Of a stretch of DNA of 64,000 nucleotides, positions 5,510 to 30,416 are shown in pieces. This DNA comes from Candidatus Latescibacterota bacterium (GTDB taxonomy: Bacteria > Latescibacterota > UBA2968 > GCA-2709665), in contig OZ241917.1 in the NCBI GenBank assembly GCA_965203805.1, forward strand, positions 4,256,001 through 4,320,000, in the 5' to 3' direction. The translations under genes were made by a program, and so were the position numbers. The notes beneath the pieces are model-generated. The model saw only the letters and a program-made list of their open reading frames with translations. It did no database searches and was not told the DNA's origin. Each line of letters starts with the position of its first letter. The stretch's first letter is position 1.

Positions 5510-5550
5510 AGGTTACTCCTCGCGCTTACGTTTTTTTTCAATCTGATCGC

Positions 5551-6948: not shown

Positions 6949-7162
6949 AATCCTCTCCAGCTCCCGGATATACGCGACTGCGACTCCGGTTTTCCGGCCG
7001 ATCGGAACATTGCGCAACGGTGAGCCGCGCGTCGAAAAGTCCCCCGCAATCTAACGCCGGCGCACGAGAAAATCAACGCGAATGACCTCCGACCCCCGCC
7101 TCTTTTGTCCTTGCCTTTTCGAAATCTGCCCGATATTCTAAAACGGCGGGGAGACGGTAGAA

Positions 7163-15537: not shown

Positions 15538-15822
15538 ATGTCCATCCAATATCCCAAACCAGACCGGGTCTGGACTGTCGCGGAGGCCAAGGCGAGGCTG
15601 TCTGAAATTCTTCGTCTGTCCGAGGCGGAAGGCCCGCAGCGAATCGGCGCGCGGAAGGCTTTCGTTGTCGTGCCCGAGCATATCTGGAAGGCTCAGTCGT
15701 CACCGCGCAAGCCGCTTGGCCAGTGGCTGATCGACAATATGCCGCGCGGGACGAATCTCGATATACCTGTCGATCGAACGTCCCGGCGGGAGATCCCGTT
15801 CGCTGACGGAGATGCGGGATGA
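15538..15822 (+). CDS. Phd/YefM-family antitoxin
   Basis: WTVAEAKARLSEILR..GPQRI; ATGA overlap with PIN gene. Confidence 0.8.
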   Translation: MSIQYPKPDRVWTVAEAKARLSEILRLSEAEGPQRIGARKAFVVVPEHIWKAQSSPRKPLGQWLIDNMPRGTNLDIPVDRTSRREIPFADGDAG

Positions 15823-16238
15823 ACGGGTTTCTCGTGGACACCAACGTGGTCTCTGAACTCACCCGAACCGCGCCGGACGCGAATGTGATGGCATTTCTGT
15901 CTAAACCGCACGATCTGTGGCTGTCGGCGGTGGTGGTGCATGAGTTGGCGTTCGGTTTGCAGCTTTTGCCTCACGGACCACGGCGCGACGTACTGCGCGC
16001 GGCGCTGTCGGGGATAATCGCAGACTACCAGGACCGTATTCTTCCTGTCGACAGAGCGGGCGCGGAATGGGCGGCCTCTTTTCGAACGCAGGCGCATCGC
16101 GCCGGACGGGTTCTGGATCTGGGTGACGCGCTCGTCGCCGGAACCGCCAGGGCCCACGATCTGTCCGTTGCAACGAGAAACGTCACGGATTTCAACGGCC
16201 TGGACGTCGACGTCACGAATCCCTGGGAATCATCGTGA
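15819..16238 (+). CDS. vapC: PIN-domain VapC toxin
   Basis: LVDTNVVSE, HELAFG, DALVAGTA, TRNVTDF, NPW. Confidence 0.9.
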   Translation: MNGFLVDTNVVSELTRTAPDANVMAFLSKPHDLWLSAVVVHELAFGLQLLPHGPRRDVLRAALSGIIADYQDRILPVDRAGAEWAASFRTQAHRAGRVLDLGDALVAGTARAHDLSVATRNVTDFNGLDVDVTNPWESS

Positions 16239-16499
16239 CCGGGAAAGAAAGGGCGACCACAATGGAACCCGACAAGCCGCCGTGGGAGGAAACATACCGC
16301 GCCATGGCTGCCGCCGGCGAAGACTGGGGCGATTTCGACTCAACGGTAGCAGATGGTCTGGATTGATGTATGGATTTCCCAGGCGATGCCTGAATGACTG
16401 CGTCGACGAGACTGGATCGCGACTCTCTGCGGCTTGAAGTTCCAAAGAATCTGTATACTATCCGTAGGGATATGGAATAACCTGCCATATGGAGGAAAC

Positions 16500-16784
16500 A
16501 TGATCCGACCAACCGATGTCGAGCCGCGAAGTGGCCACCGAATCTGGCTTCGCTTCTCGGACGGCGCGGCCGGAGAAATCGACCTGTCTGATCTCGCCGG
16601 GCGCGGTGTCTTCTGGTCCTGGAACAGCCGGACGTTCTTTGAAACTGTACATATTACGAAGAACGGAAGCATCGCCTGGGGTAAGGACGTGGAACTTTGT
16701 CCGGATGCTCTCTATTTGCGGCTTACCGGCAAATCCGTTGAAGATGTAATGCCGGATGCAAAGGCGCTGTTGGAAGATGCCTGA
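16500..16784 (+). CDS. DUF2442-like protein (putative antitoxin)
   Basis: LRFSDG..GEIDL, GSIAW, ELCPDALY; GGAGG RBS. Confidence 0.7.
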   Translation: MIRPTDVEPRSGHRIWLRFSDGAAGEIDLSDLAGRGVFWSWNSRTFFETVHITKNGSIAWGKDVELCPDALYLRLTGKSVEDVMPDAKALLEDA

Positions 16785-16792
16785 ACTTTGTC

Positions 16793-16951
16793 GCTCCCGC
16801 GGGCTTAACATTGCAGACCTCACGGCGGATTCTGGATGTGTTGTGCGAAAGGGATGTCCTGCAGGTGTTTCATCAGGGCAGGGGCCGTAAGGCAGCCGTT
16901 CTTGTGTTTTCCGAACTGCTGAACGTTGCGGAAGGCAGAAAGGTGTTTTGA
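16793..16951 (+). pseudogene. 3' fragment of a fic paralogue
   Basis: 52 codons (RRILDVLCERDVLQVFHQGRGRKAAVLVFSELLNVAEGRKVF*) colinear with the end of Fic at 20118-20276; no start of its own. Confidence 0.85.
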
Positions 16952-17042
16952 CGGCCAATCATGTCCCACAATGCCATTTGTTGGTCAATAACGATAATAA
17001 GTGGCCAATAAGCTCATCTGTCGGCAATGGGTGGCCGACAAC
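16948..17042 (+). repeat. 95-bp six-box element, copy 1
   Basis: TTGACGGCCA-4-TGTCCCACAA-6-TTGTTGGTCA-14-TGGCCAATAA-6-CTGTCGGCAA-4-TGGCCGACAAC. Confidence 0.9.
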
Positions 17043-17147
17043 AACTGTCGATTCCGTCGAGTGCCCAAACGGTACCTATTGACGTGAATCCGTGAAATAA
17101 GACTCGATTTGTTATCGTTTCGGTAGAAAATCCGAAGGGAGTTCTCT

Positions 17148-18344
17148 ATGGATGGCAAGAGGCTGTTTCGAACAATTCGTCTGGACAACATATTGTCCTA
17201 CGGTTCCTGGGACGGCGAGTTTCAACTTGAGCCGTTAAATGTCCTGATCGGGCCGAATGCATCGGGAAAGTCAAACCTCATAGAAGTAATATCTCTACTC
17301 GCTGCCGCGCCTGGTGGGGATCTTCAGGCACCGATTCGCGAGGGAGGAGGCGTTATCGAGTGGCTATGGAAGGGAGCCACTCGCCTGGGCACGGCAATGA
17401 TCGACGTAACCGTCGAATTTCCGGATAACCGACCGCTCAGATACCGGCTGAGGTTCACTGAGACTGCGTCACGGTTCGAACTCGTGGGTGAGGCAATCGG
17501 GAATGATAGGCCTAAAAAAAAGAACGAAGATCCATTTCCTTTCTATCGAAATCAGGGGGGACGGGCGAGGCTCAGCGTGTTGTCTCCGGATGAGTCTCGG
17601 TCCAATCAACCCCTTACGCAGGAAGAGTTAAGTCAGGAACAGTCGATTCTCTCCCAGCGTCGCGATCCCAACACCTATCCAGAATTAACCTATCTGGCTC
17701 ACGCATTCGAACGTATACGCTTTTATCGAGATTGCAACTTCGGGCGCTCGAGTCCGCCCCGACTACCGCAACAAGCCGACATGCGGCAGGACATTGTGCT
17801 GGAGGACGCCTCGAATATTGGATTGGTTCTGAACAGCTTGCTAAATCAACCACCCGTTAAACGCCAGATCATGGATCGCTTACGGGCTTTTCACCAGTCG
17901 ATCGAGGACATTCTCTGCGTCTTTCACAGTAATACTGTCCAGATATTCTTTCACGAAGAAGGTTTGCATCACTCGATACCCGCCACACGGCTATCCGACG
18001 GGAGCTTGCGCTACCTTTGCCTCCTGGTACTACTGTGTGATCCCAATCCGCCGCCGGTTGTCTGCATCGAGGAACCGGAGATCGGCCTGCACCCGGACGT
18101 AATCCCGGAGTTGGCGGGGCTATTGGTTGAGGCGTCTTCCCGCTGCCAGATATTCGTGACAACGCACTCCGATATTCTCATTGATGCACTCACCGACACC
18201 CCGGAAGCCGTGATTGTCTGTGAGAAGTCAGAGGGAGCGACCAAACTTCGACGGCTGGACGCCTCGGAACTCGAGCTATGGCTTAAGGATTACCGACTCG
18301 GAGAGCTATGGATAAATGGGGAAATCGGAGGCAACCGGTGGTGA
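17148..18344 (+). CDS. ABC-type (AAA_21/AbiEii-like) ATPase
   Basis: GPNASGKS, signature LSDGSL, CIEEPE.GLHP, TTHS, C-terminal LGELW..G.IGG. Confidence 0.85.
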   Translation: MDGKRLFRTIRLDNILSYGSWDGEFQLEPLNVLIGPNASGKSNLIEVISLLAAAPGGDLQAPIREGGGVIEWLWKGATRLGTAMIDVTVEFPDNRPLRYRLRFTETASRFELVGEAIGNDRPKKKNEDPFPFYRNQGGRARLSVLSPDESRSNQPLTQEELSQEQSILSQRRDPNTYPELTYLAHAFERIRFYRDCNFGRSSPPRLPQQADMRQDIVLEDASNIGLVLNSLLNQPPVKRQIMDRLRAFHQSIEDILCVFHSNTVQIFFHEEGLHHSIPATRLSDGSLRYLCLLVLLCDPNPPPVVCIEEPEIGLHPDVIPELAGLLVEASSRCQIFVTTHSDILIDALTDTPEAVIVCEKSEGATKLRRLDASELELWLKDYRLGELWINGEIGGNRW

Positions 18345-18961
18345 AAATAAAGGTGTACGTGGAAGGCGGTGGCTATAGAAAGACCACAAGCAGCGCTTGT
18401 CGCAGGGGCTTTATTAGATTCATTGAGAGATCCGGATTGCAGGGAGAGATGCCGAAAATTGTTGCCTCCGGCAGTCGTACGAACACGTTCAGACGTTTTG
18501 CAAAGAGAAGCAAAGACGCTGCAAATGAAGAAGAATACGCTCTGCTCTTATTGGACGCTGAGGGGCCGCTCAGGAAACCCCAGCCGTGGCAACATCTCAA
18601 GGAATGTGACGGTTGGAATCCTCCCGAAGACACGAAGGAATATCAATGCCATTTGATGGTGCAAGCGATGGAATCATGGTTTCTTGCAGATCGTGCATCG
18701 CTTATGGAATTCTACGGTCAGGGTTTTCTGTCAAACGCGCTACCGCAGAATCCGCAGATTGAGGAAGTCCCCAAAGGCGATGTCATCAATGGAATACGCG
18801 GCGCTACCAGAAGTACCACAAAAGGACGATATGACAAGGGGTCCCATAGTTTCGAGATCCTCGCGAAGATAGATCCAGGAAAGGTTATGGCTGCGTCGGA
18901 CCACGCAAGACGATTTATCAACGTGCTGGTGGGGCTTGCGGAAGGCAGGGAAGTATTTTGA
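18341..18961 (+). CDS. DUF4276-like TOPRIM-fold protein
   Basis: KVYVEGG, LLDAE, MVQAMESWFLAD, YDKG; GTGA overlap with the ATPase stop. Confidence 0.7.
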   Translation: MKIKVYVEGGGYRKTTSSACRRGFIRFIERSGLQGEMPKIVASGSRTNTFRRFAKRSKDAANEEEYALLLLDAEGPLRKPQPWQHLKECDGWNPPEDTKEYQCHLMVQAMESWFLADRASLMEFYGQGFLSNALPQNPQIEEVPKGDVINGIRGATRSTTKGRYDKGSHSFEILAKIDPGKVMAASDHARRFINVLVGLAEGREVF

Positions 18962-19052
18962 CGGTCACTTATGTCCAACAACGCCACTTGTTGGCCAATA
19001 TCGAGAGAAAGTGGCAAACAAACTCATTTGTCGGCCATTGATGACCGACAAC
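18958..19052 (+). repeat. 95-bp six-box element, copy 2
   Basis: TTGACGGTCA-4-TGTCCAACAA-6-TTGTTGGCCA-14-TGGCAAACAA-6-TTGTCGGCCA-4-TGACCGACAAC. Confidence 0.9.
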
Positions 19053-19163
19053 GACCGTTTTATACCGAGCCAGCGGACATGGTACCCTGCCTTTTCCACA
19101 AAAGCGCCGCGATTTCACCCCGGGTTGCGGCCAACACACGCAACGAAAGCTTGGAGGCAATTA

Positions 19164-20276
19164 ATGGCGCCAGTACAATACCATGCCGGCCGGTTCCCTC
19201 CCGATAATCTCGACTGGCCAGCGCTTATTCCACTCATTGGTCCTGCTGCGACGGCTGTGGCACGTTACGACGGTACTCTCGCTGCGACTCCTAACGCCGA
19301 TATTCTGCTCGCGCCACTCACCACGCAGGAAGCTGTCCTCTCCTCTCGCATCGAGGGTACTCAGGCCACCATGGGCGAGGTGCTGCAGTTCGAGGCCGGT
19401 CGGGAGCCAGATTCTCCGACACGCCGTGAAGATATCCACGAAGTGATCAACTATCGCATCGCCATGCGGCGGGCGGAAGAAATGCTGGACAAGATACCTC
19501 TTTCCCTTCGGGTGGTCCGAGAAGCCCATAGAATGTTGCTTGCCGGGGTGAGGGGAGAGGGTCAGTCGCCGGGCGATTTTCGTCGCGTTCCCAACTGGAT
19601 CGGTCCGCCTGGATGCTCGATCGAACAAGCCACGTTTGTGCCGATAGGCGCAGACATGCTTCCCGAGGCCATGAGTTCTTGGGAACGATATATCCACTGC
19701 GAAGCGCCAGATCAACTAGTACAACTGGCGATTCTGCATGCCGAATTCGAAGCCCTTCACCCGTTTCTGGATGGCAACGGACGCCTCGGGCGCATGCTGG
19801 TGCCGCTGTTCTTGTGGCAGTGTGGCCTCATCAGAGCTCCCATGTTTTACATCAGCGCTTACTTCGAAGCCCACCGAGACGCGTACTATGACAGCCTGCT
19901 TGCCGTGTCCCGCGACAACGACTGGACGGGATGGTGCGGGTTTTTTCTTGAGGCGGTTCGAGTGCAAGCCCAGGACAACCTTACAAAGGCGCAGGGCATC
20001 ATTGACCTGTATGAGGAAATGAAGCGGCGTGTCGCCGATCTAACCCGCTCCCGCTACGCAGTGCATGCATTGGACTGGATTTTTGAACGTCCGATTTTCC
20101 GAAGTTCTGACTTTGCGGCTTCCGCAGGCTTTACTCATCGCACCGCGCGCCGGATTCTGGATGTCTTGTGCGAAGGGGATGTACTGAAGGTGTTTCATCA
20201 GGGCAGGGGCCGCAAGGCAGCAGTCCTTGCGTTTCCCGAACTCATAAACGTTGCAGAAGGCAGAGACGTATTTTGA
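19164..20276 (+). CDS. Fic family AMPylase with N-terminal inhibitory helix and probable C-terminal HTH
   Basis: HPFLDGNGRLGR, SSRIEG; GGAGG RBS before ATG 19164. Confidence 0.9.
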   Translation: MAPVQYHAGRFPPDNLDWPALIPLIGPAATAVARYDGTLAATPNADILLAPLTTQEAVLSSRIEGTQATMGEVLQFEAGREPDSPTRREDIHEVINYRIAMRRAEEMLDKIPLSLRVVREAHRMLLAGVRGEGQSPGDFRRVPNWIGPPGCSIEQATFVPIGADMLPEAMSSWERYIHCEAPDQLVQLAILHAEFEALHPFLDGNGRLGRMLVPLFLWQCGLIRAPMFYISAYFEAHRDAYYDSLLAVSRDNDWTGWCGFFLEAVRVQAQDNLTKAQGIIDLYEEMKRRVADLTRSRYAVHALDWIFERPIFRSSDFAASAGFTHRTARRILDVLCEGDVLKVFHQGRGRKAAVLAFPELINVAEGRDVF

Positions 20277-20367
20277 CGGTCACTTATGTCCCACAACGCC
20301 ATTTGTTGGCCAATATCGAAATAAAGTGGCCAACAAACTCATTTGTCGGTCATAGATGTCCGACAAC
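20273..20367 (+). repeat. 95-bp six-box element, copy 3
   Basis: TTGACGGTCA-4-TGTCCCACAA-6-TTGTTGGCCA-14-TGGCCAACAA-6-TTGTCGGTCA-4-TGTCCGACAAC; contains the fic stop codon. Confidence 0.9.
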
Positions 20368-20424
20368 GAATTGATTTCTCGGCGCGTCGCCATGGGTTGG
20401 CAATCGGGACGGACGAAGAGTGCG

Positions 20425-20519
20425 TTGACGGTCACTTTTGTCCCACAAACTCAGTTGTCAGACAAAAATGGTGATAAGTGACCAACAAAATACGTTGTCG
20501 GCCATCGATGACCGGCAAC
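20425..20519 (+). repeat. 95-bp six-box element, copy 4
   Basis: TTGACGGTCA-4-TGTCCCACAA-6-TTGTCAGACA-14-TGACCAACAA-6-TTGTCGGCCA-4-TGACCGGCAAC. Confidence 0.85.
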
Positions 20520-20654
20520 GGCCGTCTATTCATCAGGAGTTGATTTGTCCTACACAGCAGCAGGCGTCCGTGATGTCCCGTGTGATTAAATCGACACACA
20601 AACTCCGTCAACATCCGTCAATCCGGATTCACAGAATAGAGAGAACACTCCCGA

Positions 20655-23453
20655 ATGCGTCTATCCTGGAATGAAATCCGAGCTCGAGCGGCCCGATTTG
20701 CTGAGGAATGGAAGGATTCGGGGTACGAAAAGGGTGAGACCCAGAGTTTCTACAACGAATTCTTTGAGATCTTCGGCGTGAAACGCCGCACGGTCGCACG
20801 CTACGAGGAACACGTTCAACGTCTGGATGACTCCAGTGGATTCATCGATCTCTTCTGGCCGGGCGTATTGCTTGTCGAGCAGAAGAGTGCGGGCGTCAGC
20901 CTGAAGAAGGCACGAGAACAGGCGGACGCCTATTTCGACGCGCTGCAGGAGCACGAGAGGCCGCGTTACCAGTTACAGTGCGACTTCCAGACTTTCGATC
21001 TAATTGACCGGGATGAACGCGAGGAAGTGCGTTTCGCCCTGGCCGACCTTCCTGACCATGTCGAGAAGTTCGGCTTTATCCTCGGTGTTCAGAAGCGGAC
21101 CTTTAAGGACCAGGATCCGGTCAACATCGCTGCGGCCGAACGCGTCGGCCTTCTCCACGACGCGCTGGCGGCTTCCGGCTACACCGGACACGACCTGGAG
21201 CAATTCCTGGTTCGCATTGTTTTTTGCTTTTTTGCGGACGACACCGGCATCTTCGAACCGCGCGACATCTTTCTCGATTACCTGGAAAACCGTACGAGTG
21301 CTGACGGGACGGATGTCGGAAGCCGCCTTATGCACCTGTTCCAGGTTCTCAACACCCACCAAGAACATCGCCCTACCACGCTCGATGAAGACCTCGACCG
21401 CTTCCCATACGTCAACGGCGAGCTATTTCGTGACCCATTACCCATCCCGTCATTCAATTCTGAGATGCGCGACAGGCTAATAGACGCATGTAACTTCAAT
21501 TGGTCGAACATTTCTCCGGCGATATTCGGGTCGTTATTCCAGTCGGTTATGGACACGAACGAACGACGCCGACAAGGCGCACATTATACCACAGAGCAGA
21601 ACATCCTAAAGGTAATCGAACCCCTCTTCCTGGACGATCTGCGAGCGGAATTTCAACGCCTGAAGGCACGCCGGGACACCCGTCGCATTCCCGATCTGAT
21701 CGCCTTTCAGCAGCGACTCGGAAACCTTCGTTTTCTTGATCCGGCTTGCGGATGCGGGAATTTCCTGATCATCGCCTACAGGGAATTGCGCGAGTTGGAA
21801 ATCGAGGTCCTCAAGGAGATTCGCCCAAAGCGGCAGGTCGACGCTTTTGCAGAGTTGCTTTCGGTGGTAGACGTCGATCAGTTTTACGGTATTGACATAG
21901 GAGAGTTTCCGGCACACATCGCCAGAGTCGCGTTGTGGATGATGGATCATATCATGAATAATCGCCTCAGCCTCGAGTTCGGTCAGACCTACACCCGCAT
22001 TCCACTCGAGAAGTCGCCGCACATCCGGCAGGGAGACGCGCTCGAAATTGATTGGGGGAAACAGCTTCCGCCGGAACAATGTTCATATGTGCTGGGCAAT
22101 CCGCCGTTCGTGGGTGCCAAGTTCCAATCTCAGCTACAACGGGAACAGGTGAGGAGAATTGCCGCGCTGGGGAAGAGCGGCGGCACGCTCGACTATGTGA
22201 CTGCGTGGTTCATCAAGGCTGGGGAATACGTGAAGAATAGCGCGGCACGAATCGGTTTTGTGGCGACAAATTCCATCACGCAGGGCGAACAGGTCGCGCA
22301 ACTCTGGCCGATTCTGTTCGAGCGGCACAAACTGGATATCACATTCGCGCATCGTACGTTTGCGTGGGGATCGGACGCTCGCGGCATGGCGCACGTCCAC
22401 GTCGTCGTCATTGGATTGTCAAAACGTGACGATTCGCCGCGGCAAAAACGTCTGTTTTCCTACGAAACCCCGAAGAGTGATCCGCAACAGAGCCAACACC
22501 ACGCCCTGTCGCCCTACCTTTTCGACGCGGGAGGTTTGACGGATCCCAAAACGGTAGTAAAGGAAACGGCACACCCCTTGAATGGACTTCCGGCCTTGTT
22601 AAGCGGCTCGCAACCCATCGATAATGGAAACTACATTTTCAATGCCGATCAAAGGGTCGCGTTCCTTGCAGAAGAACCAGAGGCGGAGAAATTTATGCGA
22701 CCGTATGTCGGCGCACGTGAGCACATTCAAGGCCGAGAACGGTGGATTTTGGCTCTTCATGACGCGAGCCCCGCCGAACTCAAGGCGATGCCGAATGTCA
22801 TTGAGCGCATGAGAGCCGTCAAGGCGTTTAGGGCGAAAAGTAAACGCAAGAGCACCCTCGCCATTGCCGGCTATCCGGCGCAATACAACGTTAATGTCGT
22901 ACCTACCGCACCGTTCTTAGTCGTTCCAGAGGTAAGTTCCGAACGTCGAGAATACATCCCGATCGCTTGGCTGCAGCCGCCGGTAATTCCGAGTAATCTC
23001 GTCCGCATTGTCGAGAACGCCAGCAAACACTTATTCGCACTTCTCACTTCTGCAATGCACGTTGGATGGATGCGCAATATTGGCGGGCGATTGGAGAGCC
23101 GTTACCGATATTCTATCGGTCTGGTCTACAATACCTTTCCCCTACCACCGGTACCGCCAGAACGCCTGAAACGCCTTGAAACCCACGCCGACGCCGTTCT
23201 ATCCGCTCGCGCGAATCATCCTGACTCGACACTGGCAGACCTGTACGACCCAGACTTGATGCCTGCCGATCTCCGCAAAGCCCATCAGGCGCTGGACCGC
23301 GCCGTCGATAGGCTATACCGGCGCACTGGCTTCACCTCCGAGCGCGAACGTGTGGAACATCTCCTCGGGCTATATGAAAAAATGGTCGCGCCGCTTGCGG
23401 CAAAGGCGAAACCGAAGCGACGGCGAAGGGGTAGACAAGTGCCTGAAGAATGA
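20655..23453 (+). CDS. MmeI-family Type IIL/IIG restriction-modification enzyme
   Basis: N-terminal ID..EQK nuclease, GAHYT, DPACGCGNF, GNPPF, ATNSITQGEQ, RYS..LVYNTFP, LADLYDP. Confidence 0.9.
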   Translation: MRLSWNEIRARAARFAEEWKDSGYEKGETQSFYNEFFEIFGVKRRTVARYEEHVQRLDDSSGFIDLFWPGVLLVEQKSAGVSLKKAREQADAYFDALQEHERPRYQLQCDFQTFDLIDRDEREEVRFALADLPDHVEKFGFILGVQKRTFKDQDPVNIAAAERVGLLHDALAASGYTGHDLEQFLVRIVFCFFADDTGIFEPRDIFLDYLENRTSADGTDVGSRLMHLFQVLNTHQEHRPTTLDEDLDRFPYVNGELFRDPLPIPSFNSEMRDRLIDACNFNWSNISPAIFGSLFQSVMDTNERRRQGAHYTTEQNILKVIEPLFLDDLRAEFQRLKARRDTRRIPDLIAFQQRLGNLRFLDPACGCGNFLIIAYRELRELEIEVLKEIRPKRQVDAFAELLSVVDVDQFYGIDIGEFPAHIARVALWMMDHIMNNRLSLEFGQTYTRIPLEKSPHIRQGDALEIDWGKQLPPEQCSYVLGNPPFVGAKFQSQLQREQVRRIAALGKSGGTLDYVTAWFIKAGEYVKNSAARIGFVATNSITQGEQVAQLWPILFERHKLDITFAHRTFAWGSDARGMAHVHVVVIGLSKRDDSPRQKRLFSYETPKSDPQQSQHHALSPYLFDAGGLTDPKTVVKETAHPLNGLPALLSGSQPIDNGNYIFNADQRVAFLAEEPEAEKFMRPYVGAREHIQGRERWILALHDASPAELKAMPNVIERMRAVKAFRAKSKRKSTLAIAGYPAQYNVNVVPTAPFLVVPEVSSERREYIPIAWLQPPVIPSNLVRIVENASKHLFALLTSAMHVGWMRNIGGRLESRYRYSIGLVYNTFPLPPVPPERLKRLETHADAVLSARANHPDSTLADLYDPDLMPADLRKAHQALDRAVDRLYRRTGFTSERERVEHLLGLYEKMVAPLAAKAKPKRRRRGRQVPEE

Positions 23454-23635: not shown

Positions 23636-24535
23636 ATGACATACTCCGTGGTACAATACGCAAATACGGGAAGTGGAAAAATCACTGTGGGTGAATCTGG
23701 ACTTTGCAGATATTGCCAAAAAGAAAAACCAGAAGTTTCATTCTCAAACAGAGCCCATGCGATACCTCAGTTTATTGGCAATAACGAGATATTTTCTAAA
23801 GATGAATGCAACTCCTGCAATAAGTTCTTCGGAGCCGGGTACGATGATGATTTATCCAAATATCTCGGGGGAAGACGTACCGTTTCGCAAATGCGAGGGA
23901 GGACTGGTATTCCAAGTTACAAGACACATACGGAACTGTCGAGAATTGATGTAAATAAGTCCGGCATGAGAATGTTGGGTACCGAAGGTGACGACACAAT
24001 TCACTTAAACGAGGAATCAAACACTGTGGGCATCAAAATACGAAAGCAACCATACTCACCGTTGGGTGTGTATAAGTCTTTCCTCAAGATGGCCATCGCC
24101 TTGGCTCCTCGAACTCTCTTGTCGCCGCTTGACGTCACCAGGCAGTTTCTGATGCGAAAAGATAATATTAGATGCCCATGCTTTAGGCCCTTTTTGATAG
24201 AGACCTTCATCCCTGGACCATTGAACAACGAGTTATTCACGATGCTCTTGAAAAGATCAGAAGAGGTGGACATTCCATCACTGATGTTTCTTCTTTATGT
24301 ATCCAACTACTGCTTTCAAATAGTAGTGCCCTGCCCTGAATTGGATCAAAAGCTCGCTGGCCAGGACGTAAGGGTTCCCAGAATTACCCATCCGCTTGAA
24401 CATATGAATCATCCCTATGGCTCCTCGATATCACGAAAAGTTGATCTTTCGCAATTGGAGAAGGTTCGGGATCAATACGAAATCATTACGATGCACTATG
24501 ACCGTATTGTGCCCGAATGTACCGATACACAATGA
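23636..24535 (+). CDS. HNH endonuclease-domain protein
   Basis: CRYC, AHAIP..IGN, ECNSCN; low GC. Confidence 0.75.
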   Translation: MTYSVVQYANTGSGKITVGESGLCRYCQKEKPEVSFSNRAHAIPQFIGNNEIFSKDECNSCNKFFGAGYDDDLSKYLGGRRTVSQMRGRTGIPSYKTHTELSRIDVNKSGMRMLGTEGDDTIHLNEESNTVGIKIRKQPYSPLGVYKSFLKMAIALAPRTLLSPLDVTRQFLMRKDNIRCPCFRPFLIETFIPGPLNNELFTMLLKRSEEVDIPSLMFLLYVSNYCFQIVVPCPELDQKLAGQDVRVPRITHPLEHMNHPYGSSISRKVDLSQLEKVRDQYEIITMHYDRIVPECTDTQ

Positions 24536-24722
24536 GATAATTTCAACTCAGCTTTTATTGTTATAAATTCGGCGATGGGGGAGGGCATGAAATGCCAGAG
24601 AGAATGAATATATGAGACGATGGTAGGTGGAAATCGATGGTGATGGACGGGCGTAGACGGACGTCCAAGACCGAACCGAAAGCACAGGATTCGATGTAGG
24701 ATGCGAAACAATCGAGAACGAG

Positions 24723-25844
24723 ATGGAAATATCCGCTGAAATCGACCTTGGAAATCCACCAGCCGGCTACGTTCTTACATCTGGCAGAAAAGGCGAACAC
24801 GCTAAGGTCGCCTACCGTGAATTCACATCGACTGAGGACGGCCAACATTTCACTCTAAGGCTTGAAGGGTGGCCGAACAATATTCTAAATCGTCTGCCGT
24901 CACAAATTCGGCCGTCGGAAGTGGATCACATGCTTGCGATTTGCTATAGTGACGGCAGGGCGAATGTTTTCGTGAACAATCTTGAATTATCTGCTATGGC
25001 TCGTTTTAAGAGAACGATCCCATCAGGTTCCCCAATCAGTAGAGAGGACTACGCCGATGTGGAGCGACTTGAACTTGGCGTGCCCGTACCCACTGATGCT
25101 GGCTTCGTGTTCGTCTTTTCCGTCGGATGGCGAAAGGGGCTTTTTTACGATTTCGGCCCGATAGCCGGACCAGATCCTCCTCCGCGGCGATTTGACATAG
25201 GCGCAGTCTTGGGCCAAGCGTATTGTCATGTGTTATTTCAGGAAAGGTTTAGCATTTCCGATGCAGAATGGGACGCATTGTTGGAGGCACAATGGTTCCC
25301 ATTTGTCGGCCTTCGCCACGAGAGGATCGATGCCCTCATTGGTCATATTCGATCAGGATGGAATCTAGATGAAGAACTCGATAGAATCGTCTCGGAAACA
25401 AAGGTACAAGTAAGACAAATGCTGGATATCTGGCGTACCAAAACCTCATTTCGACCCCATATGAGGATCCTTGAACGTGCTGTCGAACGATTTCAAAGCG
25501 ACGATCACATTAGTTGTACCGGATTATTGATCCCTCGTATAGAGGGGATCCTACGCACTCATCACGCAAGTCTTGGTACTCAGGCGCCTCCATCCGCCAG
25601 CAACTTAACGCGTTCGGCGGTGGCGTCCAAATCCCAGAGTGACAGGAGGTTGTTGTTGCCGCTTCGTTTCTCAAAATACCTTCAGGGCGTATACTTTGCA
25701 GATTTCAAGCCTAATGTCAAGGATATCGACGTGTCGAGACACAGTGTTGCACACGGTGTTGCGGATGCAGGGAAGTTCGATCAGAAATCTGCAGTTGTCG
25801 GTATACTCACGGTTCATCAGTTGTCTTACTTCCTCCAAGACTGA
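24723..25844 (+). CDS. Hypothetical protein with C-terminal HEPN-like RxxxxH motif
   Basis: 373-aa ORF; PRIEGILR helix and RHSVAHG. Confidence 0.55.
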   Translation: MEISAEIDLGNPPAGYVLTSGRKGEHAKVAYREFTSTEDGQHFTLRLEGWPNNILNRLPSQIRPSEVDHMLAICYSDGRANVFVNNLELSAMARFKRTIPSGSPISREDYADVERLELGVPVPTDAGFVFVFSVGWRKGLFYDFGPIAGPDPPPRRFDIGAVLGQAYCHVLFQERFSISDAEWDALLEAQWFPFVGLRHERIDALIGHIRSGWNLDEELDRIVSETKVQVRQMLDIWRTKTSFRPHMRILERAVERFQSDDHISCTGLLIPRIEGILRTHHASLGTQAPPSASNLTRSAVASKSQSDRRLLLPLRFSKYLQGVYFADFKPNVKDIDVSRHSVAHGVADAGKFDQKSAVVGILTVHQLSYFLQD

Positions 25845-26007
25845 GTATCCAGCAGGGTAAGGAGGTACAATGGTGAGCGCATTGTTGCAGTAGAACATGC
25901 AACGATTGGCTGAAATCCTCGGTGCTCGAACCTCATGCACCGAGTATATTAGATACCGCGCTGTGGTTTGGCGATGCAAAAACAACAACCGGAACTGGGA
26001 CGATCGC

Positions 26008-26508
26008 ATGACCGCTGCGCTGATGACAGATTCCGACCAGAAAGAAGCGCTGTCTTTTGTCTATGTACGCGCGGTCGCGGCGCGGGCAGGTTATGTCATA
26101 GGCCGCTCTGAACTGGACCGGGACAGCATAGACTTGAGGATTGAATCGGGTGAGCCGATGCGCCCTGCGCTCGATTTGCAATTGAAAGCAACGGCAAATC
26201 TAAATGGACGGGATGACTGTTACTTTCGATTTACTTTGAATCGGAAGAACTACGACGATCTGCGCATACCAACTCAGACTCCGAGGTTGCTCGTGGTGCT
26301 AGACTTGCCGAGAAGAAGGGACCAGTGGGTGACGATCACCGAAGATAGACTGGTGCTTAGGCGCCGTGCCTATTGGTTGAGTCTGGTCGGTCGTCCGCAA
26401 ACGGACAACCAAGTGTCGGTGACGGTTCAGATACCGCGAAGAAATGTGTTTGACGTCAATGGTCTGCGAACGCTCATGGATCAGTCAAGAGAAGGGAGAA
26501 TCCAATGA
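26008..26508 (+). CDS. DUF4365-like PD-(D/E)XK nuclease
   Basis: QKE..S, DSIDL, LDLQLKAT, NYDDLR, AYW.SL; start approximate. Confidence 0.75.
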   Translation: MTAALMTDSDQKEALSFVYVRAVAARAGYVIGRSELDRDSIDLRIESGEPMRPALDLQLKATANLNGRDDCYFRFTLNRKNYDDLRIPTQTPRLLVVLDLPRRRDQWVTITEDRLVLRRRAYWLSLVGRPQTDNQVSVTVQIPRRNVFDVNGLRTLMDQSREGRIQ

Positions 26509-27641
26509 GGGTTAGCATTAGAGACCTCAAGCCGTTGAAAGAGATTTCGCCTGCGGCTCTGTCGACATATGCTCAAGCTGCGGGATGGACCCGCACGAGC
26601 AGCTATGGTGAATATTCAGACATATACGCGTCGGACGGATTACCCGAAATCATCTTGCCGCGGACTCAACACTTGGGTGATTATACCAGCGTCGTATCGC
26701 GACTCATTGGAATTTTCGCAGATGTCGCCGGTTCCGATGAACTTTCTCTGTACCGCGACCTGGTTACTGCCGACCGCGATCTCATTCGCGTGCGGGCAGC
26801 AGATGACGGCGAGGGAGCAGTGTCGATTGGCGACGGGATTGACCTTGTCTGTGGCGCATACGATATGATCCTGGCGGCAGCCTGTTCTCTGTATAATCCG
26901 AAGTCGGTTTATCGCCCGGGCGCCAACAAGCGGGCCAGAGATTTTGTAAAAGCTTTAAGCATGGGGCAGACCGAGCAGGGGAGCTTTGTTGTTACGCTGC
27001 TTACTCCTGTGGTCTCGCCGCCCTTGCAGCAATCCGGCATATCGGATTTGAGGCACAACGACGACCCACTTGAGCGGAAAATGACAAGACGTCTTGCTAC
27101 TGCGTTGCAAGCCACACGGCGCGCAACGGAAAGATCGGTCGGAGGAAACACCGACGCCTTCCCGCTGGCTGTGAACAATGGTGTAAGCGCGAATCTCTGC
27201 GAAGCGCTTGCAAGGTTGGTCGAACCCTTTGTGTCGCTGGATGTCAGTATGACCTGGGCACGCACATATCCGATGAATACGGCGCGGGAGGTGGTTCGCT
27301 TTGACAAGGGTGATGCCGTGACTCTCCGCGCGGCTGCGAAGTTATTCCGTGATCATAAACCGCGCCCCAACGTCCGCCTCAGTGGCCCGGTGCACAGACT
27401 AATACGCTATGAGCAGGATTTCGGTACTATCGCGCTACGAGCGTCTATTGACAACCAAATGAAGTCAGTGGTTGCCGTTTTGAATCAAGCCGATTACGCA
27501 CTGGCGATCCAGGCTCACATGGAAAAGGCCTCGATCGTTGTAGACGGCGACCTAGACCGCTATGGTCAGCGCTGGCACCTGATGAATCCGCGGGTCGTCG
27601 CCCTCAATCCGCAAGAAAACTTGCAGGAAGAGGGAAAATGA
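26505..27641 (+). CDS. Hypothetical protein coupled to the DUF4365 gene, possible C-terminal OB fold
   Basis: 378-aa ORF with ATGA overlaps at both ends; GQTEQGSF, GVSANLCEAL. Confidence 0.65.
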   Translation: MRVSIRDLKPLKEISPAALSTYAQAAGWTRTSSYGEYSDIYASDGLPEIILPRTQHLGDYTSVVSRLIGIFADVAGSDELSLYRDLVTADRDLIRVRAADDGEGAVSIGDGIDLVCGAYDMILAAACSLYNPKSVYRPGANKRARDFVKALSMGQTEQGSFVVTLLTPVVSPPLQQSGISDLRHNDDPLERKMTRRLATALQATRRATERSVGGNTDAFPLAVNNGVSANLCEALARLVEPFVSLDVSMTWARTYPMNTAREVVRFDKGDAVTLRAAAKLFRDHKPRPNVRLSGPVHRLIRYEQDFGTIALRASIDNQMKSVVAVLNQADYALAIQAHMEKASIVVDGDLDRYGQRWHLMNPRVVALNPQENLQEEGK

Positions 27642-29398
27642 GGTCAATCGATCCCGTCCACTCACTGGCATTTTCAATTCAGGCGAATCCCGGTGTCTAT
27701 GCCGTTCTTGTGGGCTCAGGCGTATCCCGGGCTGCGAAGATTCCGACGGGATGGGAGATCACGCTGGATTTGATCCGCAAGCTCGCGAAGCTTCATGGCG
27801 AGGAACCCGAACCAGATCCGGAACAGTGGTATCTGAAGGAATTCGATAAAGAGCCATCATACTCCGACTTGCTCGATGAACTCGCGAAGACGCAGGCCGA
27901 GCGACAACAGTTGCTCCGGGGATATTTCGAGCCGACTGACGAGGAGCGCGAGGAAGGGGCTAAAGCATCAACAGCAGCGCATCGGGCGATTGCCGCACTG
28001 AGCGCGAAAGGATTCGTAAGGGTCATCATCACGACGAACTTCGACCGACTCGTCGAAACCGCCTTGAATGACGTCGGGGTTGTACCTGCGATCCTCAGTT
28101 CGCCCGATCAGGTCAAAGGCGCCCTCCCGTTGATTCACACGAAGTGTTGCGTCTTCAAGGTAAATGGCGATTATCTCGATACCCGAATTCGAAATACCCC
28201 AGCCGAACTTGATGAGTATCCGAAAGAGTTTAACGAACTTCTGGATCGGATCTTCGACGAGTTCGGTGTTATCGTATGCGGATGGTCAGCGGAATGGGAC
28301 GGTGCATTGCGAAGCGCATTGATCCGAGCCCCCTCACGCCGATTTACCATGTACTGGGCGTCGAGGGGCGAACCAAGCGAAGAGGCACAACGGTTGATTG
28401 ACCATCGCCAAGCCAACTCGATTCTCATCGAAGATGCTGGTTCATTCTTCATGACTGTTCAGCAACACGTCGAATCCATTGAAGAATATTGTAAGCCCCA
28501 TCCGCTTTCCACCGAAGCTGCAGTGGCAAGTCTGGAACGATTACTTCCAGATCCTCGGTACCGAATTCAGTTGTCAAATCTAATCCAGGACGCAGTTGAG
28601 CGAGTTGTCAAAGTGACATCCGGCGAGGATTTCGCGGTGCAAGGTGGCCCGACTCCAGATCGTGAATCAGCCACTGCGCGTGTGCGAAAATACGACGACG
28701 CCTGCTCAACGTTGCTGGCAATGGCGACCGTGGGTGGTAACTGGGCGGAAGAGGAGCACGACAACATCTGGCAAAAGGCGTTGCAGCGTCTTGGTTCTAC
28801 TGAAACGACAGGTGGAGTTAGATTTTGGATTGAGTTAATGAAATATCCGGCCACGCTCCTGCTTTATGCGCTAGGGCTTGGTGCGGTTGAAGCCGGTCGC
28901 CTACGGTTTCTTGGAAATCTATTGGAGACTGAGATTTATAGACAACACGAAGAGAGTTTAGCTGCCGCACGGATGCTTCCACCATTTTGCATGTTTTATG
29001 AAGGCGGACAGATAATGCAGGCCCTGGAAGGCATGGGTGACCGCTACGCACCGCTGAACGACTGGATTCACGAAGTAATGCGAACACATGCCAAGCACAT
29101 CATCCCCGACGACAATCGCTACAGATTGGTTTTCGACAAGCTTGAAATTCTCATTGCACTTGGCTGTGCCTACCGAGACGATCGCGAGCCGGAATGGTAC
29201 TGGGCACCTCCCGGGGCATTCGGTTATAGAACTGAGAACATGCATCGGATCTTTAAAGAGATCAGACAATCCCTCTCGACCATGCAGAATGAATCCCCGT
29301 ATGTAAAGAGCGAAATTTTCGGAGAAACCTCGGATGAGTGTAAGCAGGGACTTGCGGATTTGGAGGCGTTTATATCGAAGTTGGGTTGGTGGAGATAA
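27638..29398 (+). CDS. SIR2-family (SIR2_2) protein with helical C-terminal domain
   Basis: VGSGVS, IPTGW, IITTNFD, KVNGDY, CGWS..WD. Confidence 0.85.
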   Translation: MRSIDPVHSLAFSIQANPGVYAVLVGSGVSRAAKIPTGWEITLDLIRKLAKLHGEEPEPDPEQWYLKEFDKEPSYSDLLDELAKTQAERQQLLRGYFEPTDEEREEGAKASTAAHRAIAALSAKGFVRVIITTNFDRLVETALNDVGVVPAILSSPDQVKGALPLIHTKCCVFKVNGDYLDTRIRNTPAELDEYPKEFNELLDRIFDEFGVIVCGWSAEWDGALRSALIRAPSRRFTMYWASRGEPSEEAQRLIDHRQANSILIEDAGSFFMTVQQHVESIEEYCKPHPLSTEAAVASLERLLPDPRYRIQLSNLIQDAVERVVKVTSGEDFAVQGGPTPDRESATARVRKYDDACSTLLAMATVGGNWAEEEHDNIWQKALQRLGSTETTGGVRFWIELMKYPATLLLYALGLGAVEAGRLRFLGNLLETEIYRQHEESLAAARMLPPFCMFYEGGQIMQALEGMGDRYAPLNDWIHEVMRTHAKHIIPDDNRYRLVFDKLEILIALGCAYRDDREPEWYWAPPGAFGYRTENMHRIFKEIRQSLSTMQNESPYVKSEIFGETSDECKQGLADLEAFISKLGWWR

Positions 29399-29435
29399 TC
29401 TCGATGCCTGTCCTGTGCCGGAGGATCGTGCGCAT

Positions 29436-30416
29436 ATGATACCTGAAAATTTGGGAAAACTGGAGCGAGTTGACCTTCGTGAAGTATGGCGGAATGAAGC
29501 TGATGATTTCACGCCATGGTTGGCGACGCAACGAAACCTGGAGGATCTCGGAGAAACGCTCGGTATGCAGATAGAGTTTCAGGCGCGTGAGGAAGCCGTT
29601 GGTCCATATGCCGCGGACATATTGTGTAGAGATATCGACGACGATAGTTATGTCGTTATCGAAAACCAGCTTGAGGAAACGAACCATGATCATCTTGGAA
29701 AGCTTCTTACGTATGCGGCGCACTTCAAGGCGTCAACGGTGGTCTGGGTCGCGAAAGCCTTTACCGATCAGCACCGAGCAGCGATTGACTGGCTGAATGA
29801 AACCTCGGCCGAGGGGACCCAATTCTTCGCGTTGGAAATTGAGGTCTGGCGAATCGGTGAATCCGCGTACGCGCCGAAATTCAATATCGTGGCCAAACCG
29901 AACAACTGGACGAGGGGAGGGAGATCAACTGTCGCAAGTTTGACAGATACACGGCGAGTTCAGCTTGAATTCTGGAATGGATTTAATGACCACGTTTCAC
30001 GGTTTGGACAGCAGGTCAAACTTACTGGGAGTCCCAAGGCGGGACGCAGTATGGCCGCTGGCGGTTTGGGCGTACCGGGCTTCCTCCTCAGCGCTGTGGC
30101 ATCGACGCATTCCGAGACCAGGGGTTGGAATGGCCAGGAATTAAGGGCGGAACTGCACATCAACCAGGGGGAACTCTCAGACCAATATCTCGATCTTCTC
30201 AAGTCTCAAAGGACCGAGATCGAACGTGAGATGGGCGGAGAGCTGAACTGGTACAGTCCCGAGGATGCCAATGCCTGCAGAATATACTCTCGTAAGGATG
30301 TGAATCTATACGATCCAGATGCCCGCAACGAACAATACTCGTGGCTAGTGGATCAACTTGAGCGCCTCCGTCGGGTCTTTGAAGGGCGCATCCAAGAACT
30401 GGAGCCTGCTTCCTAA
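29436..30416 (+). CDS. DUF4268-like protein with N-terminal PD-(D/E)XK domain
   Basis: LREVW..EA.DFTPWL, ADI..VIENQL, HDHLGKLLTYAA; GGAGG upstream. Confidence 0.8.
   Translation: MIPENLGKLERVDLREVWRNEADDFTPWLATQRNLEDLGETLGMQIEFQAREEAVGPYAADILCRDIDDDSYVVIENQLEETNHDHLGKLLTYAAHFKASTVVWVAKAFTDQHRAAIDWLNETSAEGTQFFALEIEVWRIGESAYAPKFNIVAKPNNWTRGGRSTVASLTDTRRVQLEFWNGFNDHVSRFGQQVKLTGSPKAGRSMAAGGLGVPGFLLSAVASTHSETRGWNGQELRAELHINQGELSDQYLDLLKSQRTEIEREMGGELNWYSPEDANACRIYSRKDVNLYDPDARNEQYSWLVDQLERLRRVFEGRIQELEPAS

Follow-up and report, generated by a model that had tools for sequence, protein, structure and literature searches.

The window, by which we mean the whole 64-kb stretch of DNA that was analysed, contains a row of defence genes separated by copies of a 95-bp element composed of six 10-bp boxes. 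Pfam and PADLOC annotation agreed with the neighbour genes that a previous, sequence-only reading had placed around the copies. That reading also held that the sites mark cassette borders, and an array is indeed present at every cassette boundary of the window. The features, all on the + strand, are as follows.

16775..16948, +, fic 3'-end remnant (residues 313-370, 74% identical to the intact Fic by tblastn) that abuts copy 1; part of the 258-nt repeat D2 (16785-17042 versus 20110-20367)
16948..17042, +, six-box array copy 1; 105 nt from the array end to the HEC-01A start codon
17148..18344, +, HEC-01A, AAA_21 ABC-type ATPase (Pfam AAA_21; PADLOC HEC-01A, E 1.3e-162)
18308..18961, +, HEC-01B, DUF4276, TOPRIM-like (PADLOC HEC-01B, E 9.7e-72); its last residues (..AEGREVF) and TGA stop are a fused fic tail
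18936..18957, +, 22-nt fic-tail-like 5' extension of copy 2 (repeat finder, alignment)
18958..19052, +, six-box array copy 2; 111 nt from the array end to the fic start codon
19164..20276, +, fic (PADLOC SoFic, E 4e-108; PDB SoFic 3eqx, E 2.4e-34, residues 26-350); stop codon inside box 1 of copy 3
20273..20367, +, six-box array copy 3, beginning at the fic stop codon
20403..20424, +, degenerate fic-tail-like extension ahead of copy 4 (repeat finder, alignments)
20425..20519, +, six-box array copy 4, the most diverged; 135 nt from the array end to the MmeI-type gene
20655..23453, +, MmeI-type IIG restriction-modification enzyme, 3' of the last array (Pfam, PADLOC)

Box 1 positions 2-4 serve as the TGA stop of both fic and HEC-01B. 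At their other end, the arrays terminate 105-135 nt before HEC-01A, fic, and the MmeI-type gene. Copy 2 ends upstream of fic; no promoter was callable. The Pfam SoFic-like_C match of the window Fic lies under the cut-off (16.9 versus 27 bits), and evidence for the winged helix comes from the PADLOC SoFic model and from an alignment with PDB SoFic that reaches residue 350. The protein also matches PDB chain 7cb8 (E 2.1e-23).

A six-box element with one locus in this genome

The four direct-orientation copies were confirmed by sequence inspection and by a repeat finder (family D1), which returned units of 119 nt beginning at 16926, 18936, 20251, and 20403. The cores align without gaps, and the boxes (offsets 0, 14, 30, 54, 70, and 84) and spacers of 4-6-14-6-4 bp are the same in 4/4 copies, as had been described. 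The six half-sites make up three dyads, 10-4-10, 10-14-10, and 10-4-10, while boxes 2-3 and boxes 4-5 form 10-6-10 cores. All six boxes share one common sequence, of which every box position has its own favoured variant. Measured against copy 2 (100%, the reference), copies 1, 3, and 4 are 80%, 91%, and 68% identical, so copy 4 has drifted furthest, again as claimed. On its right the repeat breaks off sharply at box 6; on the 5' side it is about 22 nt longer than the core, the added stretch being left over from the 3' coding end of fic.

The four copies in the window are the sole copies in this 5.87-Mb genome. The 24-bp dyad pattern TTGTCGGNCANNNNTGNCCGACAA, at up to 3 mismatches, matched the window 8 times, always inside the four copies (0.02 expected from 100 shuffles). 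At up to 2 mismatches it matched the same 8 places alone in all 5,865,457 bp, with 0 matches for the reversed control, and a whole-genome BLAST search with copy 3 returned no further copies. A sequence-blind geometry scan of the window found exactly four arrays, scoring 51-52 of 60; the shuffled window gave none at 42 or above. The marks of REP/BIME or MITE elements (many dispersed copies, TIRs with target duplications, a RAYT or transposase) were not found for these four copies at one locus, and the two partial Y1_Tnp matches in a genome-wide profile search lie >210 kb away.

Within the genus, tblastn detected a fic 3' remnant attached to each array copy. The genus unit is "fic tail + array": arrays lie on both sides of an intact fic, and the place of a lost fic body is taken by the HEC-01 pair. 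The remnant bordering the HEC-01 cassette varies in length: it covers residues 350-370 in genomes G004 and G007, and in the window some 7-12 residues are left, fused to HEC-01B. Sister species differ in which cassettes they carry. Identical inter-site genes in all relatives would have spoken against mobile cassettes, and both content and order were found to differ: the order is HEC-01 then fic in the window and fic then HEC-01 in G013, other genomes have one of the two, and G010 has none. On a 12-genome flank-gene tree, fic presence changes at least 5 times (Fitch count by hand). There is no array at the HEC-01/MmeI border in G008, G011, and G013, and truncated copies occur at L043 site 2 and L049 site 3. 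Spacer lengths are constant in the 24 full copies.

Linkage to fic and covariation of the boxes with Fic clade

The same architecture occurs beside SoFic-type fic genes in Latescibacterota, in a Gammaproteobacteria MAG, in a Ca. Marinacidobacterium (acidobacterial) MAG, and on alphaproteobacterial plasmids. When metagenomes were searched from the site, 27/29 loci had the six-box architecture. A SoFic-type fic (40-90% identical) adjoined the array in 17/29, and in 15/17 of these the array lay 0-110 nt past the fic stop codon. The other 12/29 had no Fic match beside the site; several of these are short contigs, two are probably chance matches, and loci L074, L095, L076, and L096 have neighbours other than fic. 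Among the lineages examined, no gene other than fic was found as a common neighbour.

Similar results were obtained when the search started from Fic in another class. All 14 homologues with at least 47% identity and a 3' flank had a 3' geometry score of 42 or more, and in 13/14 the array lay at -32..+56 nt from the fic stop. The upstream scores of the same homologues (34-39) were at the level of the null (35-41, 20 shuffles). Loci L109-L113, of the window's phylum, showed the same 3'-side array behaviour. The array is normally 3' of fic in the window's Fic clade; on plasmid p2 of Novosphingobium sp. ES2-1 and on a plasmid of Shinella sp. PSBB067, on the other hand, it lies about 55 nt upstream. 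By crude ORF calls, only 10/18 loci have an ORF of 100 aa or more that runs in the same direction and starts no further than 400 nt past the array. Fic paralogues at about 40% identity, including the second Fic of this genome, have a single upstream 10-N14-10 dyad of unrelated sequence. As in a fic operator, then, inverted repeats of about 10 bp adjoin a fic that encodes a C-terminal (w)HTH.

In the sequences compared, the boxes track Fic clade and not host taxonomy. Those beside fic in the Gammaproteobacteria MAG (Fic 74% identity) and in the acidobacterial MAG (67%) are nearly as in the window, while other Latescibacterota fic genes (Fic 53-55% identity) have TTGTTGCTAC, TTGTGGCTCA or TTATGTCTCA. 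Between lineages all six boxes change jointly. Comparison of the recognition helix with the box sequence gave hints only and no clean code.

Candidate roles of the array

The earlier claim of a multi-subsite site of the protein-binding type is supported, and what had been offered as the alternative, an operator array read by the C-terminal HTH of Fic, fits best. This reading draws on the linkage to one Fic clade across phyla, on boxes that track that clade, and on the published DNA binding of related Fic proteins. The element is most likely the place at which Fic docks with its own DNA-binding domain, not a site dedicated to recombination. The fuller proposal, that it is a multi-dyad binding array for Fic dimers which doubles as a recombination-prone repeat, strikes us as somewhat better than an even bet.

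We infer that the array is most likely contacted by Fic dimers, by way of the winged helix. Since the more distant Fic paralogues carry the central 10-N14-10 dyad only, that dyad would be the ancestral unit. Bound Fic could regulate transcription that passes through the arrays or starts at them, or the DNA-bound state could set the activity of the Fic enzyme, or both. The direct "fic tail + array" units of about 120 bp would be the spots where general recombination swapped, added, and removed cassettes.

It could be speculated that some other protein, perhaps a host factor or a regulator of the island, binds the array, and that Fic is merely its most frequent neighbour. Within the genus, box conservation is the same without a cognate fic (0.870) as with one (0.869), and in five fic-less genomes (one of them 100% complete) no other winged-helix-region homologue was found; fic-tail remnants alone were present, in 2/5. 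Some sites also lack an adjoining fic. Rapid turnover of fic may account for the conservation in fic-less genomes. This explanation is unlikely, however, as no other gene is a common neighbour, box sequence follows Fic similarity and not host phylum, and each paralogous fic has its own dyad. With respect to docking by Fic itself, the 3' end of a regulator's own gene is a non-classical operator position, and the equal box conservation without cognate fic, the sites without fic, the sub-cut-off Pfam match, and the lack of a clean recognition code also count against it.

Another possibility is a dedicated site-specific recombination site of a res-, Xer/dif- or integron-like type. A recombinase with its gene elsewhere would act there to capture, excise, and reorder defence cassettes. 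The position of the arrays at cassette boundaries, the variation of content and order by species, the repeated changes in fic presence, the sharp edge at box 6, and a mosaic look of the sites between copies are all consistent with this, and the dyads of 24, 34, and 24 bp resemble the three subsites of a Tn3-type res, with 10-6-10 cores besides. The claim that the window holds no recombinase agrees with a genome-wide search for three Pfam families, which gave no match there. In the whole genome (99.8% complete, one contig) there were 0 matches to the serine recombinase family PF00239, for which a control search gave matches in 12/14 known genomes, and the three tyrosine recombinases (PF00589) are 0.9-2.9 Mb from the arrays. 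In no lineage examined is a recombinase a conserved neighbour. The three dyads are thus present without a cognate serine resolvase next to them; neither an integrase with attI nor the four R/L boxes of attC, folding with extrahelical bases, were found. Boxes 2-3 and 4-5 form 10-6-10 cores, as do the inverted arms around a 6-bp centre in Xer/dif-type sites. Box sequence follows Fic clade across phyla, for which a host recombinase would not account. The right-hand HEC-01 junction falls inside the fic remnant of varying length and not at a fixed point of the site, and in three genomes the HEC-01/MmeI border has no site at all. Adjoining sites with no gene between them are unlike the outcome of resolution, and a lone array beside fic is the rule elsewhere. 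No excision junction was seen in the contigs of four runs, although contigs cannot reveal rare forms. Integron-like capture and excision by a recombinase, the main inference of the sequence-only reading, is thus not supported, and we regard a recombination site of any of these kinds as quite improbable.

We are equally doubtful of a structured RNA or an ssDNA/cruciform form (three hairpins, one long imperfect hairpin, or alternative pairings) acting as terminator, insulator, stabiliser, or switch. In favour of folding, the "stems" are conserved while the "loops" vary at fixed length, and each window copy has a more stable predicted fold than its shuffled versions (z -2.7 to -4.5). No trans factor would be necessary, which would suit box conservation in fic-less genomes. 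However, no Rfam family was matched at E up to 1, and neither a covariance-model match nor covariation for one fold was found. Out of 10 positions, the outer pairs 1:2 and 5:6 are complementary at 7.0 and 7.4, no more than the cross pairs 1:4 and 5:4 (8.0 and 8.4). There is no excess of G.U over A.C mismatches (8 versus 8, 13 versus 17, and 1 versus 3), and pair 1:2 shows transversion-type mismatches in 68/240. The predicted minimum-energy folds disagree among the four copies, and all six boxes share one sequence.

Nor do we give much credence to the arrays being inert relics, the remains of decayed tandem fic-array units that are now functionless in this island. There is a fic remnant on every copy, two copies elsewhere are truncated, and copy 4 has diverged more than the other three. 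Across the species of the genus, however, boxes are 87% identical versus 53-60% for spacers, and together with the unchanged spacer lengths of the full copies this is not what neutral decay would produce.

The least probable proposal is that the arrays are junctions of a new modular exchange of defence genes. Either a Fic-array nucleoprotein complex or a host recombinase that uses the 10-6-10 cores would then promote the targeted insertion, excision, and reordering of cassettes (HEC-01, fic, and others) before the restriction-modification gene, and through the same arrays each incoming cassette would come under Fic control; if true, this would be a platform that resembles an integron but lacks the integron integrase.

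Significance and comparison with known systems

Winged-helix Fic enzymes (SoFic, CccR, CbFic2) are actively studied as toxins, phage-defence proteins, and regulators. To our knowledge, a DNA ligand has been defined for CccR only. We found no description of the six-box element in the accessible parts of the literature searched, including a paper on embedded defence genes, and consider it a previously undescribed element that accompanies one Fic group in several bacterial phyla. A fixed array with lineage-specific boxes is a concrete, testable DNA partner for one Fic clade. It raises a question of stoichiometry (three dyads, possibly three dimers), and its boxes form a ready-made data set from which the recognition code might be read. 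Since the array is usually at the fic stop codon, often in restriction-modification operons, a role beyond plain autorepression is suggested: the array may link its occupancy by Fic to the defence genes nearby, or AMPylation may be controlled by the DNA. The repeated "fic tail + array" units also illustrate the swapping of defence cassettes between sister species.

The res site of Tn3/gamma-delta has three dyad subsites with differing spacers in about 100 bp; here, in contrast, the outer subsites are symmetric, the surroundings are not those of a transposon, and the genome has no resolvase gene. Integron attC sites are imperfect palindromes of about 60-140 bp at the 3' end of the cassette ORF, in cassette arrays that vary among relatives. 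They have four boxes where the window element has six, and here we found no integron integrase or attI nearby and no strand-specific fold signature; the element goes with one gene family and not with every cassette. The pdif (Xer) modules of Acinetobacter plasmids are exchangeable modules flanked by short sites with inverted arms around 6 bp. Whereas pdif sites alternate in orientation, all copies here are direct, with 10-bp arms and boxes that vary with Fic clade and not with the host dif.

Among regulators found together with defence islands, the WYL-domain BrxR family resembles the present case in that it reportedly pairs one DNA-binding protein with inverted repeats before defence genes (PMC9122601); here, however, the candidate regulator doubles as an enzyme/toxin, and its site, a six-box array of fixed layout, often follows the gene on the 3' side. 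SoFic of Shewanella oneidensis belongs to the same family as the window Fic. As far as its preprint was accessible, the SoFic dimer binds specific DNA near its own gene, with binding narrowed to a 100-bp upstream fragment and the operator sequence left undefined (bioRxiv 10.64898/2026.07.09.737422). For CbFic2, activity is reported to be switched by HTH-mediated DNA binding (PMC10628234). [quoted passage not shown] Compared to that one dyad with a 26-bp spacer at a promoter, the window element has six boxes spaced 4-6-14-6-4, unrelated in sequence to those of CccR, and the arrays of its clade mostly lie at the 3' end of fic.

Architecture and confinement of the array

The four 95-bp copies of a six-box site that the sequence-only reading had placed at 16948, 18958, 20273 and 20425 were borne out by a repeat finder, which returned one family of four direct 119-nt copies from 16926, 18936, 20251 and 20403 (80, 100, 91 and 68% identity to copy 2, respectively), and by a gap-free alignment of the four cores. 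In every core the 10-bp boxes begin at offsets 0, 14, 30, 54, 70 and 84, which gives spacers of 4-6-14-6-4. A six-box geometry scan of the window that was blind to sequence recovered exactly these four copies, at 51-52 of 60, and a shuffled window gave nothing at or above 42. On its 5' side the repeat continues for ~22 nt beyond the core, reaching the tail of the upstream ORF, and fic and HEC-01B alike take their TGA stop from positions 2-4 of box 1. Box 6 (TGTCCGACAA; window 20357-20366 and equivalent positions) includes TCCGAC, which would fit TCCRAC, the sequence that MmeI itself recognises.

The copies are confined to this locus. The outer dyad pattern matched 8 times in the window, always within the copies (0.02 expected), and in the 5.87-Mb single-contig genome it matched only at those 8 places (reversed control 0). 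BLAST and a search with the central 10-N14-10 dyad likewise returned the four copies and no others. This copy number, four at a single locus, rules out a REP or MITE element.

Genes in and around the locus (window positions)
15819-16238: PIN-domain protein (toxin-antitoxin), upstream of copy 1
16434-16784: DUF2442 protein (toxin-antitoxin), upstream of copy 1
17148-18344: HEC-01A, ABC-type ATPase, AAA_21 (PADLOC)
18308-18961: HEC-01B, DUF4276
19164-20276: SoFic-type Fic
20655-23453: MmeI-type IIG enzyme
23636-24535: HNH_5 protein, downstream defence island
24723-25844: 373-aa ORF without family, downstream island
25897-27641: PDC-M02A/B, downstream island
27638-29398: SIR2-type PDC-S65, downstream island
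29334-30416: PDC-S11, downstream island

In the window the array is present in several copies, which mark the borders between defence cassettes. Residues 26-350 of the window Fic align with solved SoFic structures (E 2.4e-34). HEC-01 is named in a paper on embedded defence genes, which reports that it did not protect against the phages tested there. The defence island continues 3' of the MmeI-type gene (23636-30416), a dimethylglycine-dehydrogenase-like gene also lies upstream of the locus, and the small genes at 15819-16784 vary among species of the genus. A promoter and terminator scan of 16700-20800 gave 1 promoter-like site against 2.7 expected and was unusable.

Linkage of the array to SoFic-type genes

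The array was followed beyond the genus both from the site and from the Fic protein. When one genome per species was scanned with the pattern, hits came from the genus itself and from three records outside it, namely a Gammaproteobacteria MAG, a Ca. Marinacidobacterium MAG and a 3.8-kb contig labelled Alphaproteobacteria, which may be mis-binned because its MmeI gene is 81% identical to that of the window. A looser geometry pattern gave 29 metagenome stretches, 27 of which match the site model; their sites keep the 4-6-14-6-4 layout while the box sequences differ (for example TTGTGGGTCA). In 17 of these stretches, and in both MAGs, a SoFic-type fic gene directly adjoins the site; the array lies 0-110 nt 3' of the stop codon in 15 of the 17. 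Digester-type contigs have a methylase gene, read as hsdM from its NPPY-type motif, upstream of fic and in translational coupling with it, and the array, sometimes of eight or more boxes, stands between fic and the next gene. Such extended arrays, seen in the digester-type loci L094, L097, L075 and L095, combine as many as three kinds of box (TTGTGGGACA, TTGTGCGACA, TTGTGTATAC) and retain the 4/6/14-15 spacer rhythm. In the Gammaproteobacteria MAG (L061), the fic stop is followed by a tandem of three complete or partial arrays (5363-5720) in ~114-144-nt steps with gene-free intervals, and a fourth (7012-7107) lies upstream of a MazE/PIN pair.

The remaining 12 metagenome stretches had no Fic match. 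Chance probably accounts for two of them, and the rest are short contigs or lie beside DinB/nitroreductase, ParE, DUF499 or lipid A acyltransferase genes; one (L074) has an apparent Fic tail (..AEGDR), as judged by eye.

Starting from Fic, we found matches in 80 of 168 Latescibacterota genomes and scanned 25 loci. In five of them (L109-L113, 49-55% identity) a six-box array stands at the stop codon, and the boxes read TTGTTGCTAC, TTGTGGCTCA, TTATGTCTCA and TTGTTGCTAA; two (L106 and L114) have partial arrays, and L115 has a 10-N14-10 dyad upstream, as do the paralogues L116 and L119 (roughly 40%), where the dyad is single. Fic matches came from 72 of 400 genomes in the class to which the gammaproteobacterial MAG belongs, and 27 of the 29 new loci (L148-L176) were analysed; a locus of an unpublished genome and a partial match were left out. 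All 14 Fic genes that reach 47% identity and have a 3' flank scored 42-51 on that side (null 35-41), 13 of these arrays lying at -32 to +56 nt from the stop, and the upstream regions of the same 14 genes scored at the null level. At 41-44% identity the array was found upstream instead (4 of 6 scoring at least 46), and at 40% or below there were at most single dyads, also upstream. Among L148-L176 the position of the array depends on the Fic clade: 3', upstream, or a single upstream dyad.

On the Novosphingobium sp. ES2-1 p2 and Shinella sp. PSBB067 plasmids a six-box array stands ~55 nt upstream of fic. A Thermus thermophilus plasmid Fic (43% identity) had no six-box array scoring 42 or more, and a 10-15-10 dyad was seen upstream by eye. 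The second Fic of the window genome (G000:C1:3692729-3693748, L138; 39% identical) has its own upstream dyad, ATTATTATCG-N14-CGCTAATAAG, and similar dyads occur in two relatives (G001 and G014) and at other paralogues. The array thus accompanies winged-helix Fic genes. Box sequence tracks the Fic clade and not the phylum of the host, and the core shared by all is the 10-N14-10 dyad.

Cassette turnover and the recombination reading

The relatives compared are Candidatus Latescibacterota MAGs, some labelled Gemmatimonadota. Of the 14 genomes of the genus, 13 carry the element, as does one of two from a sister genus; a search of the remaining 85 relatives did not find it. Across the genus the locus is syntenic, and a comparison that the sequence-only reading had called for found that the content and order of genes between sites differ.

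Order of sites and genes in genomes of the genus
G000 (window): site-HEC-01-site-fic-site-site-MmeI
G013: site-fic-site-HEC-01...MmeI
G001, G004: site-HEC-01-site-MmeI
G002, G006: site-fic-site-MmeI
G009: site-fic-site, MmeI missing
G010: single site alone
G012: site, then another gene, then MmeI

The boundary from HEC-01 to MmeI has no site in G008, G011 and G013. In front of several sites the 3' end of a former fic gene can still be recognised, covering residues 313-370 at copy 1, 347-369 in G001, and 350-370 behind HEC-01B in G004 and G007. The repeated unit is therefore "fic tail + array". Both the window and G001 have a shorter fic tail fused onto HEC-01B. In the window the HEC-01B frame enters this tail at 18936-18961, so the last residues of HEC-01B (..AEGREVF) and its stop derive from fic; the native HEC-01B of G004 and G007 stops ~50 nt sooner. 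The HEC-01 pair thus sits where a fic body was lost, and its right junction falls within fic coding sequence, at no fixed point of the site. On a tree of a conserved flanking gene (12 of 14 loci; the gene is split in the other two) species with and without fic are interleaved, requiring at least five changes by Fitch parsimony, counted by hand. Cassette turnover is real and fast.

The earlier reading had inferred an integron-like protein-binding or recombination site that shuffles these cassettes. Variable cassette order would suit such a site, as would the sites of diverged relatives from two sponge-metagenome runs, which align as mosaics of the window copies; both, together with the ~120-bp direct repeats, are expected from general recombination through repeats and flanks. 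The genome has no serine recombinase (PF00239), its three tyrosine recombinase genes (PF00589) lie 0.9-2.9 Mb from the locus, and no recombinase recurs beside the element in the other lineages examined. Two partial matches to the Y1 transposase family PF01797 (G000:C1:4533812-4534033 and 4547970-4548200) occur ~215-230 kb downstream of the window, one within a 1252-aa open frame. The window has no tRNA gene as an integration landmark. The sequencing runs listed for the stretch include none of RNA. Two runs containing the whole stretch showed the window arrangement with no joint at the sites, and no excision junction was seen in contigs of four runs, although contigs cannot show rare forms. A dedicated mechanism acting at the arrays is improbable, and the operator that the earlier reading had offered as its alternative is the better interpretation.

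A fold in RNA or DNA as what reads the boxes is unlikely: Rfam has no match to the array, box pairs 1:2 and 5:6 are no better matched than cross pairs, no pairing has an excess of G.U over A.C, and the minimum-energy folds differ among the four copies.

Fic as candidate reader of the boxes

Within an array all six boxes have a common sequence, which varies in concert from lineage to lineage, and between species the boxes are 87% identical and the spacers 53-60%. This points to a reader that acts in trans and moves together with the element. Fic is the sole neighbor shared across the lineages examined. Its recognition-helix region varies between box types, and two unrelated "AAR"-helix Fic genes share the box core TGTCTC; there is no clean code, and a correspondence of helix and box is suggestive only.

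In genomes of the genus without the cognate fic, the boxes are as conserved as in those with it, and five such genomes contain no other homologue of the winged-helix part. The paralogous Fic does not account for these sites, having its own, unrelated dyad. Given the fast cassette turnover, the losses could be recent, or fic could be polymorphic within species. For an operator the 3' position is unusual, and by crude ORF calls only 10 of 18 loci have a co-directional gene behind the array. The array may therefore exert DNA-dependent control of the Fic enzyme as much as transcriptional control.

The element is best read as a widely distributed variant of a Fic operator in which six boxes form three dyads and which goes with a single SoFic clade. 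We found it described nowhere in the literature searched, including the accessible part of the paper on embedded defence genes. Fic as reader would fit three reports: the dimer of CccR protects an inverted pair of 10-bp boxes with 26 bp between them (PMC9755527), a SoFic dimer binds within the 100 bp that lie upstream of its own gene (bioRxiv 10.64898/2026.07.09.737422), and in CbFic2 HTH-mediated DNA binding switches between activities (PMC10628234).
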